From the NCBI GenBank assembly GCA_964014485.1, contig CAXHAT010000008.1, positions 11,892 to 75,891 on the forward strand: a DNA stretch of 64,000 nucleotides. The letters run 5' to 3'. Numbering within the stretch: the first letter of the stretch is position 1; each line of letters opens with the position of its first letter. The DNA comes from an uncultured Deferribacteres bacterium (GTDB lineage: Bacteria; Zhuqueibacterota; Zhuqueibacteria; Zhuqueibacterales; Geothermadaptataceae). A model generated the notes under the pieces. That model did no database searches. It saw nothing but the letters and a program-made list of their open reading frames with translations, and was not told the DNA's origin. Shown here piece after piece: positions 11,669-58,362 of the stretch. Both the position numbers and the translations under genes were made by a program.

Positions 11669-12667
11669 ATGGTCTCCCAAAACCACCTCGACGCCATCCG
11701 CGAAATTATAGATAGTTCACACCAGGTTCTTATCACAACGCACGTAAACCCTGACGGCGACGCCATTGGCTCTGAAATGGCGTTGGCCCGCTATCTTGGG
11801 CAAATCGGCAAAAGCGTCAAGATCATCAATTCCAGCCCAACGCCTTCAGGAATGCGGTTTCTTGACCCCCGCAACGCCATCGAAGTTTTCGACGAAGATC
11901 GACACATCGAAGACGTGACGGCGGCGGACGCAGTGTTCATTCTCGATATCAGCGATTGGGCGCGTTTGCAAGACCTGGGCAAGCTTTTGAAAAAAATGCA
12001 TTATCCCAGAGTGTGTATCGATCATCATCCGGCGCAGAATAAATTCGTCGACATTGACGCGATTTATCCAAAAGCCAGCTCGACGGGCGAGCTGATTTAC
12101 GATTGCCTGAAGGCGTGGGGCGCAAAACTGAACATGCGTATTTGTGAGGCGATGTACACCGCCGTCATGACGGATACCGGCGGCTTTCGGTTTTCAAACA
12201 CCTCGCCGCGCGTGCATGAAATCGCCGCTGATTTTTTGCGCTACAAAGTGTCGCCCAACAACGTCTACGCCGAACTATACGAAAATCAACCAATCGAGCG
12301 CGTTAAATTGATGGGCGAAGTGGCGGGAACGATTGAGACCAGCGCCGACGGTCGCGCCGGCTGGGTCTACGTGACGCAGGACATGCTGCGCAAAACCGGC
12401 GCAACGTTAAAAGACACAGACGGATTCTCCGATTTGCCGCGAACGATTGAAGGCATTGAAGTGGCGCTTTTTTTCGCCGAATTGGAAGACCCCAAAGTCA
12501 AGGTCAGCTTTCGTTCAAAAGGCCGCGTCGTCATCAACGAAGTCGCCAGAAAATTTGACGGCGGCGGGCATAAATTTGCGGCCGGGGCGACGATTAAGGG
12601 CAAACTGCCAGACGTGATGGAAAGCGTTATTCGCGAAATAACGAATCTTCTCAATCCTGCCGGTTAA
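11669..12667 (+). CDS. nrnA: DHH-DHHA1 phosphoesterase (nanoRNase / pAp phosphatase)
   Basis: HVNPDGDAIGS, IDHH, TDTGGF, SFRS, GGGH..AAG. Confidence 0.88.
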   Translation: MVSQNHLDAIREIIDSSHQVLITTHVNPDGDAIGSEMALARYLGQIGKSVKIINSSPTPSGMRFLDPRNAIEVFDEDRHIEDVTAADAVFILDISDWARLQDLGKLLKKMHYPRVCIDHHPAQNKFVDIDAIYPKASSTGELIYDCLKAWGAKLNMRICEAMYTAVMTDTGGFRFSNTSPRVHEIAADFLRYKVSPNNVYAELYENQPIERVKLMGEVAGTIETSADGRAGWVYVTQDMLRKTGATLKDTDGFSDLPRTIEGIEVALFFAELEDPKVKVSFRSKGRVVINEVARKFDGGGHKFAAGATIKGKLPDVMESVIREITNLLNPAG

Positions 12668-47565: not shown

Positions 47566-47838
47566 TTGGTATTAGGACGTGTTATCGGAACTGTCTGGGC
47601 GACGCGAAAAGACGAAAGCCTGACGGGGATGAAATTGCAAATTGTTCGCCCTGTGGATCTGGATTATTCGGAGAAGCAGGGCTTTCTTATTGCCGTTGAC
47701 GTTGTCGGCGCTGGCGTTGGTGAAAAAGTGATTGTCGTTCAGGGAAGTTCTGCGCGACAAACGGATTTGACGACTCAAAAACCAGTCGACGCCGCCATCA
47801 TTGCCATCATCGATAAACTTGACGTTGAGAAAGCCTGA
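47566..47838 (+). CDS. Bacterial microcompartment vertex protein (BMC-P, EutN/CcmL)
   Basis: LGRVIGTVWATRKDESL.G.KL, AVD.VGAGVGE.V...GSSAR, PVDAAI.AIID. Confidence 0.92.
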   Translation: MVLGRVIGTVWATRKDESLTGMKLQIVRPVDLDYSEKQGFLIAVDVVGAGVGEKVIVVQGSSARQTDLTTQKPVDAAIIAIIDKLDVEKA

Positions 47839-48116
47839 TGTATTTGGCGAAAGTCATTGGTACGATCTGGGCGACTCAAAAATACGCGTCGTTGGAAGGC
47901 GCGACAATGCAATTGATTCAACCGCTCAAAGCCGATGAAACCAAGGAAGGCGGTCCCATCGTCGCTATAGACACTATTGGGGCGGGCGCCGGAGAGACGG
48001 TTGTTTACATCACTGCGCGCGAAGCGGTGATTCCGTACCCCGTCGAAATGGCGCCGATTGACGCTTCGATCATCGGCATTGTTGACAACATAGACGTTTA
48101 CGACCAGACAACATGA
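47838..48116 (+). CDS. Second, divergent BMC-P (EutN/CcmL)
   Basis: MYLAKVIGTIWATQK, AIDTIGAGAGE.V....AREA, PIDASIIGIVD. Confidence 0.9.
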   Translation: MYLAKVIGTIWATQKYASLEGATMQLIQPLKADETKEGGPIVAIDTIGAGAGETVVYITAREAVIPYPVEMAPIDASIIGIVDNIDVYDQTT

Positions 48117-51852: not shown

Positions 51853-51857
51853 ACTGA

Positions 51858-51881
51858 AGAGACGCGATGCATCGTGTCTCT
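51858..51881. repeat. Degenerate REP copy (AGAGACGCGATGCATCG family)
   Basis: AGAGACGCGATGCATCGTGTCTCT; matches 54912-54939. Confidence 0.7.
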
Positions 51882-51902
51882 ATCAACTTGCGGAGGGAGA
51901 AG

Positions 51903-53184: not shown

Positions 53185-53964
53185 ATGCGCCTCTCCAACA
53201 AATCCATTGTCATCATTGGCGGTACAAGCGGGATCGGGCTGGCGGCGGCGCAAGCTTTTGTTGCTGAAGGTGCGAAAGTCGTGGCGTTAGGGCGGGATGA
53301 CGAATATTTGAGCGAAGCCGTAAAGTTTTTAAACGATCAAGGGCGCGTCCTGTCGGGAGATGCAACGAATCCGGAATCATCAAAAAAAGCGATTGCTTTG
53401 GCTCAGTCAACTTTCGGGGGCTTTGACGGACTTTATCACGTCGCCGGAGGCAGCGGCAGGTCTTTTGGCGATGGGGCGTTGCATGAGGTGACTGACGAAG
53501 GCTTGGAAAAAACGCTCTCGTTGAACTTCAATTCGCTGGTTTATTCAAACCGCGCCGCGCTTCAGGCTTGGTTGAAAAAGGGCCAGTCCGGCGTTATCTT
53601 GAATCTTGCTTCAGTGCTCGCGTTTTCTCCGTCTCCGAAATACTTTTCTACGCATATTTACGCTGCGGCAAAAGCGGCGATTATCGGCCTCACCACATCC
53701 GCCGCCGCGTATTATGCCGGCAAAAATATCAGGATAAATGCCTTGGCTCCGGGGCTTGTCGAGACGCCGATGGCGCAGCGCGCCGCCCAAAATCAGGAAA
53801 TCATGAAATTCACCAAATCCAAACAACCTTTGGACGGCGGACGCATCGGCGCAGCGACAGACCTTGTCGGCGCAGCAACTTTTTTCATGTCCGAAGAAGC
53901 AAAATTTATTACTGGACAAGTGCTTGGCGTCGACGGCGGCTGGTCTATCAGCGAAGGCGTTTAA
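53185..53964 (+). CDS. Classical SDR oxidoreductase
   Basis: GGTSGIG, YAAAK, NALAPG.VETPM, ITGQ.L.VDGG. Confidence 0.92.
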   Translation: MRLSNKSIVIIGGTSGIGLAAAQAFVAEGAKVVALGRDDEYLSEAVKFLNDQGRVLSGDATNPESSKKAIALAQSTFGGFDGLYHVAGGSGRSFGDGALHEVTDEGLEKTLSLNFNSLVYSNRAALQAWLKKGQSGVILNLASVLAFSPSPKYFSTHIYAAAKAAIIGLTTSAAAYYAGKNIRINALAPGLVETPMAQRAAQNQEIMKFTKSKQPLDGGRIGAATDLVGAATFFMSEEAKFITGQVLGVDGGWSISEGV

Positions 53965-53995
53965 ACATCAATTCAGAGGGAAGGCAATTTAAGAA

Positions 53996-54889
53996 ATGAG
54001 TTATGCAATCGGCGTCGATCTTGGCGGAACGCGCATCAAATTGATCGTTGTTTCTCCTGACGGCGCGGTGATCACGAAAAAAATCGACCAGACGGCTGAT
54101 GTTGGCGACGCTTCCTGGGCTGACAAAATCAAAAAGATGATTTCGGAAGCGGAGCGGGAACAAGGCAAAACCGCCGGTGCGGTCGGGCTCGCGGCGCCCG
54201 GGCTTGCAGCGCGAAATTTTCGCTCAATCATCTCAATGCCCGGTCGCCTTGAAGGACTTGAGCATCTGGATTGGACGGAATTTTTAGGACGGGAAAAAAT
54301 TTCAACGATGTTGAATGACGCTCACGCCGCTCTTATTGGCGAACATTGGCTGGGAGCCGCTCGAAATTATGATGATGCTATTTTGTTAACGCTTGGAACG
54401 GGCGTCGGCGGCGCGATTCTTTCAAACGGAAAATTAATGACGGGCCACATTGGACGCGCTGGACATCTTGGACACATTTGTTTGGACAAATCAGGCGAGC
54501 CGGACAATGTAAATACGCCCGGCAGCATCGAAAGCATGATTGGAGAGCATTCCATCCCTCAGCGAACGCGCGGCCTGTTTCCTTCTTCCAAGAAGCTTGT
54601 TGAAGCGCATCTCGCCGGTCATAAAAGAGCGACGGAAATCTGGCTGGAATCCGTTCACGCGCTTGCTTGCGCAATAACTTCATTTGTGAATATTCTTGAT
54701 CCGGAAGCAGTGATTGTCGGCGGCGGAATCGCACAAGCTGATGATGCGCTGTTCAAGCCACTGGCAAAATATATGGGTGAAATGGAATGGCGCCCGGATG
54801 GACACAAGGTCAAAATCCTGCCTGCTGAACTGAATGATTGGGCTGGGGCGTTTGGAGCGGCGCGATTCGCGATGACGTTTGAGCAATGA
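53996..54889 (+). CDS. ROK-family sugar kinase
   Basis: GVDLGGT, NDAHAA..GE, TLGTGVGG, AGHLGH, GGGIA; no HTH. Confidence 0.9.
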   Translation: MSYAIGVDLGGTRIKLIVVSPDGAVITKKIDQTADVGDASWADKIKKMISEAEREQGKTAGAVGLAAPGLAARNFRSIISMPGRLEGLEHLDWTEFLGREKISTMLNDAHAALIGEHWLGAARNYDDAILLTLGTGVGGAILSNGKLMTGHIGRAGHLGHICLDKSGEPDNVNTPGSIESMIGEHSIPQRTRGLFPSSKKLVEAHLAGHKRATEIWLESVHALACAITSFVNILDPEAVIVGGGIAQADDALFKPLAKYMGEMEWRPDGHKVKILPAELNDWAGAFGAARFAMTFEQ

Positions 54890-54911
54890 TTTGTTTAAAT
54901 TGTACGGCATG

Positions 54912-54939
54912 GTAGAGACGCGATGCATCGCGTCTCTAC
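54912..54939. repeat. Perfect 28-bp GTAG-type REP palindrome
   Basis: GTAGAGACGCGATGCATCGCGTCTCTAC. Confidence 0.8.
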
Positions 54940-54962
54940 AAATCTCTTTGCAACGAAAAATT

Positions 54963-55757
54963 ATGATTGAAAAAAAACCAACGTTCAACTATTTGGACAA
55001 GTGCCGAAGCCTTCTGCGCGCCGTTGAACGCCAAACGTCGAAAATTGAAAAGGCTGCGGATTGGTTTGCCGAGACCATCCTCGCCGACCGCATGGTGCAT
55101 CTTTTCGGCTCCGGGCACAGCCGCATTATGGTCGAAGAAATGTGGCCGCGCTACGGTTCATTCCCGGGATTTAATCCCATCGTTGAACTGTCGTTGACTT
55201 TCCATAATCCGGTCGTTGGCGCGAATGGCCAGCGTCAGGCGATGTTCATTGAAAATGTCAGCGGACTAGCCGCCCGGATTCTGCGAAATTTCGATTTGTC
55301 AAAGCAAGACTCCGCTTTGGTCATCTCGTCTAGCGGCTGCAACATTGTTCCGGTTGAAATGGCGGAAGAATTCAAAAAGCGTCAGATTAAAGTCGTTGCC
55401 ATTGTCACCGCAAAACACGCTGAAGTTAGTTCAAGCAAACACCCTTCAGGCAAAAAACTGGCGGATTTCGCTGACTTGGTCATTGATACAGGAGCCCCTG
55501 CCGGTGACGCAATGGTCAAAATCGACGATCTCGAGTCGCCCGTATCGCCTGGCTCAACCATTGGCGGCTGCATGATTGTCAATGCGCTCAAAGCCGAAAT
55601 TGCACAGAGACTAACAGCAGCAGGCGCTCCTCCAAAAGTTCTTACTGCGGCATGTCTTGTTGGCGCTGAAAAATCTACTAAACTCTTTGAATCGGCCTAC
55701 GACGAGCATGCGTATCGCGTGAGCAAGCTCTACGCAGGCTTCGGCCAGGAACGCTAA
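54963..55757 (+). CDS. SIS-domain phosphosugar-binding / isomerase protein
   Basis: VHLFGSGHS, ISSSG.N.VPVEMA, L.D.ADLVIDT..P.GDA, P.ST. Confidence 0.85.
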   Translation: MIEKKPTFNYLDKCRSLLRAVERQTSKIEKAADWFAETILADRMVHLFGSGHSRIMVEEMWPRYGSFPGFNPIVELSLTFHNPVVGANGQRQAMFIENVSGLAARILRNFDLSKQDSALVISSSGCNIVPVEMAEEFKKRQIKVVAIVTAKHAEVSSSKHPSGKKLADFADLVIDTGAPAGDAMVKIDDLESPVSPGSTIGGCMIVNALKAEIAQRLTAAGAPPKVLTAACLVGAEKSTKLFESAYDEHAYRVSKLYAGFGQER

Positions 55758-55807
55758 CACAGCAGGAAAAGAAAGCTTCGGTTGCCAATGTGTTTGCGAT
55801 CTTTTCG

Positions 55808-55910
55808 AAAAGTAACTTGGGAGTCAAATGCTTCAGCGTTTGTTTGGGCTGTTTTCAGTCACGAACGATGAATAAATCATCGCACTCTAACCAAAGGTTA
55901 CTCGGAAGCG
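55808..55910. repeat. Degenerate repeat related to 7179-7431
   Basis: AAAGTAACTTGGGAGTCAAATGCTTCAGCGTTTG vs AAAGTAACTGGAGAGTCAGAGACTTCAGCGTTTG (about 7397); GTTACTCGGAAGC vs the reverse complement of GCTTCTGAGTAAC (about 7179). Confidence 0.5.
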
Positions 55911-55953
55911 CTGCTCGTACCTAAAAATTCCCAACCCCAAAACTACTTTTGAT

Positions 55954-56985
55954 ATGAATTCCACTCCCATTAGAACGACCGTCGTCGGTAGTTACTCCAT
56001 GCCAGGCTGGCTGGAATTTGCTAGCCAAAATCTAAATCAATTCGGCAAAAAAGATATTGAAGAAATGCAGGATGACGCTGTCATAGCAGCAGTCCATGAT
56101 CAAGTTGCCGCAGGCCTCGACGTGATCACGGACGGCGAGCAAACGCGCCTGGATTTCAACTTGTCATTTTATGGATTTTTGGAAGGCACTGAGTTGGAGT
56201 CCGAGAGTCCGCGCAAATGGGGGCCTCCGGCGCACGATCAACGGGGGAAACACAAAATCATCGGCGAAATCGCAGCGCCGCGCGGGCTTGGCGTTGTTGA
56301 AGAATTCGAAAGACTCAAACGCTTGGCGCCGTCAGGCCCGACCTTGAAAGCCAGCGTTCCCGGCCCGTTTACCATGACCGGCAGGTTTTTGCCGAACGCG
56401 CAATATCCGGATCGTTACGCCATGACGGAAGCGCTCATCCCCATCGTTCAAAAAGAGTTGGAAAGTCTCGTCGCGGCGGGATGTCAGGAATTGACGGTCG
56501 ACGAGCCTTCGATGAGCTGCTACGCCTGGAAAGAAGACACAAAGCGATTTGTCGATATTTTCAATCGCACCGTTGAGCCTGTCGTTGGCAAATGTCGTCT
56601 GTCGACGCATCTCTGCTTTGGTAATTACAAAGGCCATCCGGTCGGCTACAGACGAATCTCGCCGATGCTGCCGGATTTTCTTGATTTCAAGGTAGACGAG
56701 ATTCACGTTGAAATGGCGAATCGCGAATTCACAGAGATTGAGTTGATCGCGGAATTCGCCAAACGGATGGATGTCGCCGTCGGCGTCGTGGACGTCAAAA
56801 GTTATTACATCGAATCCGTCGACGATATTGTCGCGCGAATCAAGTTGTGTCTGGAGCATGTTTCGCCGGAAAAACTCTCAGTGGCCCCGGACTGCGGCCT
56901 GAGTCAGACCGCGCGCTGGGCGGCGAAGAAGAAGCTGCATAACATGGTCGCAGGAGCCCAAAAAGTGCGTAGTGAGCTGCAATGA
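55954..56985 (+). CDS. Single-barrel MetE-like (cobalamin-independent methionine synthase II family) Zn enzyme
   Basis: TTVVGSY, GLDVITDGE.TR, PGPFT, VDEP; Zn ligands HLC, E (IHVEM) and PDCG. Confidence 0.85.
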   Translation: MNSTPIRTTVVGSYSMPGWLEFASQNLNQFGKKDIEEMQDDAVIAAVHDQVAAGLDVITDGEQTRLDFNLSFYGFLEGTELESESPRKWGPPAHDQRGKHKIIGEIAAPRGLGVVEEFERLKRLAPSGPTLKASVPGPFTMTGRFLPNAQYPDRYAMTEALIPIVQKELESLVAAGCQELTVDEPSMSCYAWKEDTKRFVDIFNRTVEPVVGKCRLSTHLCFGNYKGHPVGYRRISPMLPDFLDFKVDEIHVEMANREFTEIELIAEFAKRMDVAVGVVDVKSYYIESVDDIVARIKLCLEHVSPEKLSVAPDCGLSQTARWAAKKKLHNMVAGAQKVRSELQ

Positions 56986-57027: not shown

Positions 57028-58362
57028 TTAAACGAATTGGTTAATTAAGCACTCAAACAACTCTTGTTTCCCGCTCCTTTGTTTTGGTTCGCCGTTTTTC
57101 ATGGCGTAATCCCGTAAATCTTCCAGAGAAAGATTCCCCGCTTCGAATTCCGCTCCGGTCCCGGAATCATAAGAAGCATAACGCTCCGTGCGCCAATGAC
57201 GATAATCCGAGTTTTCCAAAATATCATTGGCGATCAGGAGCGCTCTTGCGAACGCGTCCATGCCGCCGATGTGAGCGATAAATATGTCCTCAAGATCGGT
57301 TGAATTGCGCCGCGTCTTGGCGTCAAAATTCACCCCGCCAGTTTTGAACCCGCCCGCTTCGAGAATGACGAGCATCGTCTCGGTCAATTCGTACAAATCC
57401 ATCGGAAACTGATCCGTATCCCAACCGTTTTGATAATCGCCTCGGTTCGCGTCGATGCTGCCCATCACGCCCGCGTTCGCTGCAACTTGCAGCTCGTGCT
57501 GCATGGTGTGACTGGCTAGCGTGGCGTGGTTGACCTCAATGTTGAGTTGAAAATCGCCCAATAAATCGAATTCTCGCAAAAAGCCAATCGTCGTCGCGGC
57601 GTCAAAATCGTACTGATGCTTCATCGGCTCCATCGGTTTTGGCTCAATCAGAAACGTGCCTTTAAATCCGTTCTTACGAGCGTAATCTTTTGCCATGTGA
57701 AAGAATCGCGCGATGTGCTCTTGTTCGCGCTTCATGTCGGTGTTCAGAAGCGACATGTAGCCTTCGCGTCCGCCCCAGAAAACGTAATTCTCACCGCCAA
57801 GCGCGATGGTCGCATCTAAAGCGTTTTTCACCTGCGTTCCGGCGTGGCACAAAACATGAAAATCCGGGTTGCTTGCCGCGCCGTTCATATAGCGGATATT
57901 GGAAAAAACATTGGCCGTTCCCCAAAGAAGTTTGACTCCCGAAGCCGCCTGCTTTTCTTTTGCATACTCCACGATGGCGTGCAAACGTTTCTCGGACTCT
58001 GTGATGGAGTCCGCTTCATCGACCAGATCATAATCATGGAAGCAGTAAAACGGAACGCCCAACTTTGTGATAAATTCAAATGCAGCGTCCATTTTGTCGC
58101 GGGCGCGCTCAACCGCATTGCTTTTTGACATCCAGGGGAAGGATTTTGTCCCCCCTCCAAAAGGATCTGCGCCGTCATTACAGAACGTGTGCCAATAACA
58201 AACGGCGAACCGAAAATGGTCGCGCATTGTCTTGCCCGCCACAACGCGATTTTCGTCGTAAAATTTAAATGCCAGCGGGTCTCGCGACTCTTTGCCTGCA
58301 AATTGGATTTTTGAGATGTTGGGGAAAAACGCTTTATCGCCGGTGGTGACGGATGTGCTCAT
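57028..58362 (-). CDS. xylA: Xylose isomerase (class II)
   Basis: [60 protein letters not shown]. Confidence 0.96.

Follow-up and report, generated by a model that had tools for sequence, protein, structure and literature searches.

What does a single-barrel zinc enzyme of the methionine synthase (MetE) fold do at the end of a run of sugar genes? The question is raised by the window analysed here, the 64,000 nucleotides of contig CAXHAT010000008.1 of an uncultured Deferribacteres bacterium that run from position 11,892 to 75,891 (G000:C8:11892-75891; the host genome is 97% complete), in which genes for a short-chain dehydrogenase/reductase (SDR), a ROK sugar kinase, a SIS sugar-phosphate enzyme and a MetE-like protein follow one another. 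The four genes belong to a conserved pathway that is found across about eight phyla and consists of a trunk (SDR, kinase and NagS-like SIS protein) and one of two branches: the MetE-like protein with a metallo-β-lactamase-fold protein (MBL), or a PF12831 flavoenzyme with a hydrolase of the phosphotriesterase family (PTE). Together the trunk and branch genes make up a real, conserved and undescribed pathway of sugar breakdown. A full-text search of the literature, main texts only and with few subscription papers among them, brought up no account of these genes as a set; relative to that literature the set and the exchange of its two branches are new. What the MetE-like protein contributes is less certain, and a methyl transfer from a sugar to homocysteine is tentatively proposed below.

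The four genes, as defined by open reading frame (ORF) calls, Pfam and NCBIfam, are uninterrupted and co-oriented:

53185..53964, + strand: SDR dehydrogenase/reductase, trunk gene (PF13561, 176 bits)
53996..54889, + strand: ROK sugar kinase, trunk gene (PF00480)
54963..55757, + strand: SIS_2/UPF0309 sugar-phosphate enzyme, trunk gene, distant relative of NagS (PF13580; PRK02947)
55954..56985, + strand: single-barrel MetE-like zinc enzyme, 343 aa, gene of branch A (Meth_synt_2, PF01717)

A trunk with two exchangeable branches

Linkage was followed in two sets of loci, 80 anchored on the MetE-like gene (many of them on short contigs) and 80 metagenome loci anchored on the SIS gene. The MetE-anchored loci contain SIS in 61 cases, MBL in 60, SDR in 39, ROK in 22, the flavoenzyme in 5 and PTE in 6; where 3.5 kb of upstream DNA is available SIS is found in 47 of 56, and where 1.5 kb is available downstream MBL is found in 52 of 66. 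The corresponding numbers for the SIS-anchored loci are MetE-like 46, ROK 45, MBL 32, SDR 31 and flavoenzyme 7, and among the 43 with 1.5 kb downstream, 34 have the MetE-like gene, 36 have either it or the flavoenzyme, and 7 have neither. In the host genome the MBL orthologue (59%) lies outside the window (G000:C420:1808-2641) and a Gfo orthologue (71%) is on contig C26; orthologues of the flavoenzyme and PTE were not found there. An earlier note on this DNA, made from the sequence alone, had singled out four co-oriented enzyme genes. All four are intact and on the + strand, with SIS beside MetE-like relatives in the 61 loci just referred to, but the MBL partner on contig C420 and the alternative flavoenzyme branch had been overlooked.

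The exchange of branches emerges from the gene content of 251 sampled genomes of one Bacteroidota order. SIS is present in 16 of these and the MetE-like gene in 14, of which 13 also have SIS; an SIS orthologue thus accompanies 13 of 14 MetE-like carriers versus 3 of 237 non-carriers, and the linkage persists when the genes sit on different contigs or far apart. MBL occurs in 13 genomes, all within the 14 that have the MetE-like gene; the flavoenzyme occurs in 6, all with SIS, and PTE in 5, all within those 6. Neither hydrolase, MBL or PTE, was ever found in the 251 genomes without its own partner enzyme. The 16 SIS genomes split into 10 with the MetE-like gene only, 3 with the flavoenzyme only and 3 with both, and the 3 without the MetE-like gene all have flavoenzyme and PTE. 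An SDR orthologue is present in 17 of 17 pathway genomes and a ROK orthologue in the 16 of them that have SIS; both are found in 0 of 10 control genomes. (A class-wide sample, with SIS in 2 of 301 genomes, held too few for a profile. The MetE-like gene is patchy also in the host's own phylum, with 9 carriers among 167 genomes.) Plasmids of Spirosoma, Haliscomenobacter and Persicobacter carry the alternative arrangement, SDR-(ROK)-SIS-flavoenzyme-PTE, and MetE-like and MBL genes are absent from the displayed region of these three annotated plasmids.

A quick tree was made of 132 SIS rows, leaving out 33 loci that lack both branch genes and rows with fewer than 220 aligned residues. Flavoenzyme-type SIS proteins are scattered in it among MetE-type ones, with six label changes, of which well-supported branches force only one. 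Given this intermixing, the trunk is taken to be one family. That two unrelated enzyme pairs can stand in for each other on it suggests a common target for removal, most likely a methyl group. Taking off methyl is the single obvious task that an enzyme transferring to a zinc thiolate shares with a flavoenzyme, and betaine methyltransferases and amine oxidases are examples of the two; demethylation is favoured for that reason.

The MetE-like protein

The protein scores 99 bits against PF01717 (cut-off 21) and its predicted structure is one barrel (pLDDT 93.6), for which the best Foldseek match is MesD (3RPD; TM 0.84, 23% identity). All 136 of 136 aligned subfamily members have the zinc ligands H219, C221 and E253, and 133 have C314. 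A single barrel with zinc ligands is also what the earlier note had read from the sequence. S13 (135 of 136 rows), E62 and D183 (136 of 136 each) align with Ser22, Glu73 and Asp188 of 3RPD, which are named as homocysteine-binding in PMC7857596. Their retention makes homocysteine the likely acceptor and methionine still the likely product. These residues carry some information because EtnE, which uses coenzyme M (CoM), differs at the first two positions: Asn and Lys are found there in the control, a single barrel beside an alkene monooxygenase on a plasmid of Nocardioides JS614 (L213), which we take from those adjoining genes to be the epoxyalkane:coenzyme M transferase EtnE. A basic loop (R87, H94, D95, R97, K226, R321) is likewise invariant in the family.

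The subfamily is tight, with 67-80% identity across phyla (Bacteroidota, Calditrichota, Planctomycetota, Verrucomicrobiota, Acidobacteriota, Chloroflexota and Abditibacteriota) and next relatives at 45% or less. Identity to the MesD, split-MetE and EtnE references is 22-32% overall, all eight NCBIfam methionine-synthase models stay below cut-off, and a quick tree, with EtnE on a long branch, sets the subfamily apart from these references. The likeness to MesD extends to the single catalytic barrel, the four zinc ligands and the three homocysteine residues, but at 23-28% identity (28% to L214, beside DUF1852) it stays under the membership level of at least ~55%, and the MesD model PRK09121 yields 121 bits (cut-off 392). 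Unlike MesD, the MetE-like protein is tied to a sugar kinase, SIS and a hydrolase, and can be exchanged for a flavoenzyme. MesX (PF08908) has no match in the host genome, where control genomes are equally silent, and none among the scanned neighbours. MesB and MesC are set apart by genome context only; PF03599 (CoFeSP), which is over cut-off in two methanogens serving as controls, was not found in the host genome. The split-MetE model PRK04326 yields 220 bits (cut-off 406), identity to the haloarchaeal catalytic subunit is 32%, and no folate-binding partner half recurs in the 80 MetE-anchored loci. EtnE is similarly a single MetE barrel in catabolism that keeps its zinc ligands, but it is only 28% identical and has neither Ser nor Glu at those positions of the homocysteine site, and the MetE-like gene is without adjoining monooxygenase or CoM genes. 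PRK00957, which we take to be the model standing for MesA, yields 95 bits (cut-off 258). MesA is not known outside methanogens; the carriers of the MetE-like gene are bacteria of several phyla. Judged by these tests, the MetE-like protein falls outside MesA, MesD, split MetE and EtnE.

The host genome has a full MetH, over cut-off, as do 46 of 50 MetE-like carriers tested (drawn from the 80 loci), and the conclusion that the MetE-like protein is not needed for routine methionine synthesis is supported. MetH by itself is weak evidence, because MesD often co-occurs with MetH too (in 75% of its genomes; PMC7857596). The earlier note had inferred a role other than ordinary methionine synthesis, and this is supported: the protein branches apart from the MesD, split-MetE and EtnE references, and it is co-conserved with SIS, SDR and kinase. 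Single-barrel MetE relatives carry the annotation methionine synthase in their thousands (8000 of 8000 scored candidates at E <= 0.001), a label that is probably wrong for this subfamily, given its tie to sugar catabolism. The ESM Atlas clusters that came up were all automatically named ones, of Meth_synt_2 and FAD_oxidored.

The host genome also has a second MetE-like barrel, 27% identical to the first, on contig C19 (L083:2597-7944), where it accompanies genes for an RraA-like aldolase, an SDR and a UxuA-family protein in a run that is divergent from an AraC regulator and has a sugar-acid context. A connection of this cluster to the RraA/UxuA genes of locus L193 was considered and rejected: at 28-43% identity they are not orthologues.

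Trunk enzymes, hydrolases and flavoenzyme

The SDR falls below every specific NCBIfam cut-off displayed, and PDB and NCBIfam offer only generic matches as to its substrate. In the kinase HxGH replaces the usual ExGH, with H157 and H160 in 73 of 73 rows, and the CxCGxxGC zinc motif is lacking. The same HxGH is found in the solved N-acetylmannosamine kinases 2aa4, 6jdc and 6jdb (non-significant matches of a short query); it is the sole feature shared with NanK, whose model PRK05082 yields 113 bits (cut-off 283). At 3 of 80 loci ROK is replaced by a PF25270 gene of the ketohexokinase family.

The SIS protein scores 273 bits against PRK02947 (cut-off 135), and its only PDB matches are 3cvj and 9eol, the latter (98 bits) being NagS of Streptomyces, a member of the same UPF0309/SIS_2 family. 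NagS dehydrates GlcNAc-6P and ManNAc-6P, with H53, R64, E94 and D179 essential (PMC12680351). The equivalents of these four residues are present in 162 of 162 SIS rows; the position of S91, in contrast, is M or L, and that of N228 is N in only 15 of 162. The invariance of the four with loss of S91 and N228 points to the same catalytic core with, probably, another substrate. The SIS protein also has other neighbours than NagS (no dmdR1) and is below the 58% identity level; three NagS homologues from outside the Streptomycetaceae, at 26-36% identity, have little or no NagS activity (PMC12680351). The SIS protein of the earlier note is confirmed, but the isomerisation proposed for it is no likelier than an elimination, given the kinship with a dehydratase.

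For the two hydrolases the nearest named relatives are UlaG (MBL, 54-65 bits of the 306 of PRK11709) and phospho-furanose lactonase (PTE, 176 of the 630 bits of NF045706; PDB 3pnz, 3msr), both far below family cut-offs. The flavoenzyme clade (L139:2369-3739, family P0271) is 70-80% conserved, with several invariant Cys and His. No close solved structure was found for it: the best TM is ~0.45 and the best Z 19.6 at 4.2 Å, FixC-like. As to a likeness to GidA/TrmFO, which would have implied a folate-linked methylene chemistry, MnmG stands at rank 43 of a wide structural search, tied with many flavoproteins.

A proposed pathway and its rivals

From the gene content, the co-occurrence, the two-branch pattern and the active-site residues we infer a scheme in which every reaction, the order of reactions, the methyl group and the substrate are conjectural. 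It would be a cytoplasmic catabolism of a methylated sugar or amino sugar. The SDR, often with a Gfo/Idh/MocA protein, and the kinase would deliver a sugar phosphate, which the NagS-like SIS protein would open and then either isomerise or relieve of its C3 group by elimination. The zinc-bound homocysteine thiolate of the MetE-like protein would take the methyl group from an activated intermediate, giving methionine with neither folate nor cobalamin, and MBL would hydrolyse the resulting lactone or amide, whose product would enter central metabolism. In other genomes the PF12831 flavoenzyme and the PTE-family hydrolase would take over this part of the pathway, the demethylation there being presumably oxidative. 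In one concrete and wholly speculative version, SIS would dehydrate a 2-O- or N-methyl aldose phosphate and oxidation would give an unsaturated lactone in which the methyl group becomes transferable; demethylation and lactone opening would then yield a 2-keto-3-deoxy acid phosphate for an aldolase.

That methyl passes from a methylated (amino)sugar phosphate to homocysteine on the MetE-like protein, and is removed oxidatively by the flavoenzyme, is a tentative reading, which we put at somewhat less than an even chance. We are more hesitant about its full form, in which a MetE barrel has become a folate-free, cobalamin-free, oxygen-independent sugar demethylase that feeds methionine and has been exchanged in evolution for a PF12831 flavoenzyme; this is a possibility to be entertained rather than expected. 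Bmt/BHMT and MmuM offer a partial precedent (PMC12366255): methyl is transferred directly from a nutrient to homocysteine with no folate or cobalamin, but those enzymes are MetH-derived and use N- or S-methyl onium donors, while the MetE-like protein is MetE-derived and its proposed donor is a sugar derivative.

Some operons have genes for handling methyl groups inserted in them. In an Opitutaceae operon (L047, L220) mutually overlapping genes for a URO-D-like protein, a corrinoid protein and an MtaA-like protein (HxC..C) lie between ROK and SIS; as seen in L047 (1000-3901; G035:C239) this is a three-part cobalamin methyltransferase cassette within a sugar operon. The same URO-D-like gene directly precedes SIS in L148, L150 and L186, ROK is followed by a GbcA-like Rieske gene in L164, and L058 has PurU between the SIS and MetE-like genes. 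The Rieske and corrinoid neighbours score best, below cut-off, against glycine-betaine models. The earlier note had suggested demethylation, ring opening or C-S chemistry in place of ordinary methionine synthesis. Demethylation gains indirect support from these inserts; on the other hand, with the homocysteine residues kept, methionine is still the likely product.

Several points weigh against this reading. The corrinoid cassette, Rieske gene and PurU amount to 1 to 4 loci of ~190 and may be chance insertions; nuclease, GNAT and 23S-IVP genes are also inserted at these sites, and the genome with the L047 cassette has corrinoid genes on two further contigs. Without activation, O-methyl ethers donate methyl poorly. 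S, E and D of the homocysteine site are kept in the uncharacterised barrels L216 and L217 and in the C19 paralogue, and may therefore be an ancestral state. Nor do transporters or glycoside hydrolases point to a substrate, since none is a conserved neighbour of the genes. The swap itself rests on three genomes (chance 20/560 = 0.036), two of them fragmented assemblies, kin are not independent, and the SIS tree is compatible with a single origin of the flavoenzyme arrangement. Both branches occur together in 3 of 16 genomes and in 7 of 21 flavoenzyme loci, so that they may act on two related substrates rather than one. Genome G577 has MetE-like, MBL and SDR genes but no SIS or ROK match, G545 is without MBL and G647 without PTE. 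Finally, for want of a close solved structure, the demethylase role of the flavoenzyme is a guess.

The same pathway might involve no methyl transfer at all. The amino-acid site of the MetE-like protein would then bind a 2-amino sugar acid or a cysteine- or homocysteine-sugar conjugate, zinc would promote elimination, hydration, thiol addition or C-S cleavage, and the flavoenzyme would reach the same product by redox chemistry. Hints of an amino sugar (the NagS-like SIS, the NanK-like HxGH, an NagB/AgaI-like deaminase and KDPG aldolase) speak for this, the invariant basic loop suits an anionic second substrate, and the second MetE-like gene of the host has genes for an RraA-like aldolase, an SDR and UxuA in its company. 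Zinc and homocysteine residues are, however, all kept together, the characterised members of the family, as far as is known, all alkylate a thiol, and the corrinoid cassette of L047 would be left unexplained; we regard this alternative as rather unlikely. Less probable still is that the trunk is a deglycation module that splits a sugar conjugate and so releases an amine or amino acid bearing methyl, with the MetE-like protein or the flavoenzyme acting on the released part. An oxidoreductase, a kinase and a SIS protein are the layout of such pathways, as in FrlD/FrlB or opine catabolism; exchange of the kinase for a PfkB-type ketohexokinase-family gene (3 of 80 loci) and the glycine-betaine leaning, below cut-off, of the Rieske and corrinoid neighbours would also fit. 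Against it, the SIS protein is of the single-domain SIS_2/UPF0309 type, with NagS and 3cvj its only PDB matches, and the likeness of both hydrolases is to lactonases of sugar phosphates.

The protein might instead be an ordinary core methionine synthase, supplied with methyl by a corrinoid protein or MesX-like partner, which merely travels with sugar genes. This would account for the retention of all catalytic and homocysteine residues, and the company of MetH does not exclude it, since MesD keeps the same company (75% of its genomes). It is very improbable in view of the presence of SIS in 13 of 14 carriers versus 3 of 237 non-carriers, even with the genes far apart, the lack of a CoFeSP match in the host genome and of MesX as a neighbour in the loci inspected, and the lack of met genes or a riboswitch nearby. 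The least credence is given to biosynthesis, in which the genes would make rather than degrade a small molecule (a modified sugar, a thio-sugar or an osmolyte): the absence of a conserved transporter and the GalE gene that precedes SIS in one marine Verrucomicrobia clade are in favour, but that GalE link is limited to the one clade, GntR/UTRA or GntR-LacI regulators head many loci, and most of the neighbouring genes are catabolic (aldolase, deaminase, Gfo, AP_endonuc_2).

The locus in the window and arrangements elsewhere

The other features of the immediate locus are:

54912..54939, no strand: perfect 28-nt palindrome, a genome-wide repeat, probably REP-like (repetitive extragenic palindrome), not operon-specific (41 exact copies in the genome)
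55792..55918, no strand: dispersed intergenic repeat in the SIS-MetE spacer (>30 BLAST matches, other contigs)
57028..58362, - strand: xylA, xylose isomerase, convergent neighbour (TIGR02630, over cut-off)

The gaps in the four-gene run are 31, 73 and 196 nt, and the short repeats that the earlier note had seen in them are real. The ROK-SIS gap holds the palindrome, of which there are 89 near copies in the genome besides the 41 exact ones, and a degenerate second copy in the window at 51856-51883; the label REP-like is our interpretation. The repeat in the 196-nt SIS-MetE spacer has its matches elsewhere in the genome and no Rfam family at gathering score. For the SIS gene, annotated at 54963-55757, the longest frame begins with TTG at 54879. 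At gathering scores Rfam finds four tRNAs only in the whole window and no riboswitch or leader RNA, in agreement with the absence of an S-adenosylmethionine (SAM) riboswitch that had been noted before. Promoter and terminator scans are at chance level (11 found versus 7.6 +/- 3.3, and 20 versus 16.5 +/- 4.4).

xylA is convergent and directly follows the MetE-like gene, as previously pointed out, but it is an incidental neighbour outside the conserved unit, because 0 of 80 MetE-anchored loci have it. The upstream esterase and M19 dipeptidase are ruled out as members on the same count (0 of 80), and DUF1080 is represented by distant matches only (3 of 80). At 47566-48116 of the window there are two adjoining small ORFs that appear to resemble EutN/CcmL microcompartment vertex proteins, with no shell operon seen beside them.

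Arrangements elsewhere vary. GntR/UTRA or GntR-LacI regulators stand at the head of many loci, an NagB/AgaI-like deaminase gene lies between ROK and SIS in L164, L167 and L176, a KDPG aldolase gene is nearby in L069 and L159, and RpiB is found in one locus. The marine Verrucomicrobia clade has galE-SIS-MetE-like-MBL, with no adjoining kinase or SDR (L038, L043, L046, L049, L055, L060, L062, L066, L076). Acidobacteriota have a different order, two Gfo, SIS, SDR, MetE-like, MBL (L051, L053, L057, L061, L064, L071, L072, L075, L079, L080, L013), and their SIS is only ~40% identical while the MetE-like protein is ~70% identical. Where MBL has moved away, GNAT acetyltransferase genes of two kinds are found directly upstream of the MetE-like gene (L184, L198, L199, L201, L202, L204, L205).

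What the pathway may mean

To our knowledge it is established in few cases how bacteria strip sugars of their methyl. A thiol-dependent route, if true, would be both a new solution to demethylation and a tie between methionine supply and the turnover of polysaccharides in soils and waters. If the alternative that involves no methyl transfer is true instead, the MetE fold has a new chemistry. The swap of two unrelated enzyme pairs makes their shared role directly testable in cultured Bacteroidota that carry either branch, and, should the sugar-demethylase reading be true, a single substrate would be enough to assign a first function to three groups at once, the MetE-like subfamily, the UPF0309 clade and the flavoenzyme clade.

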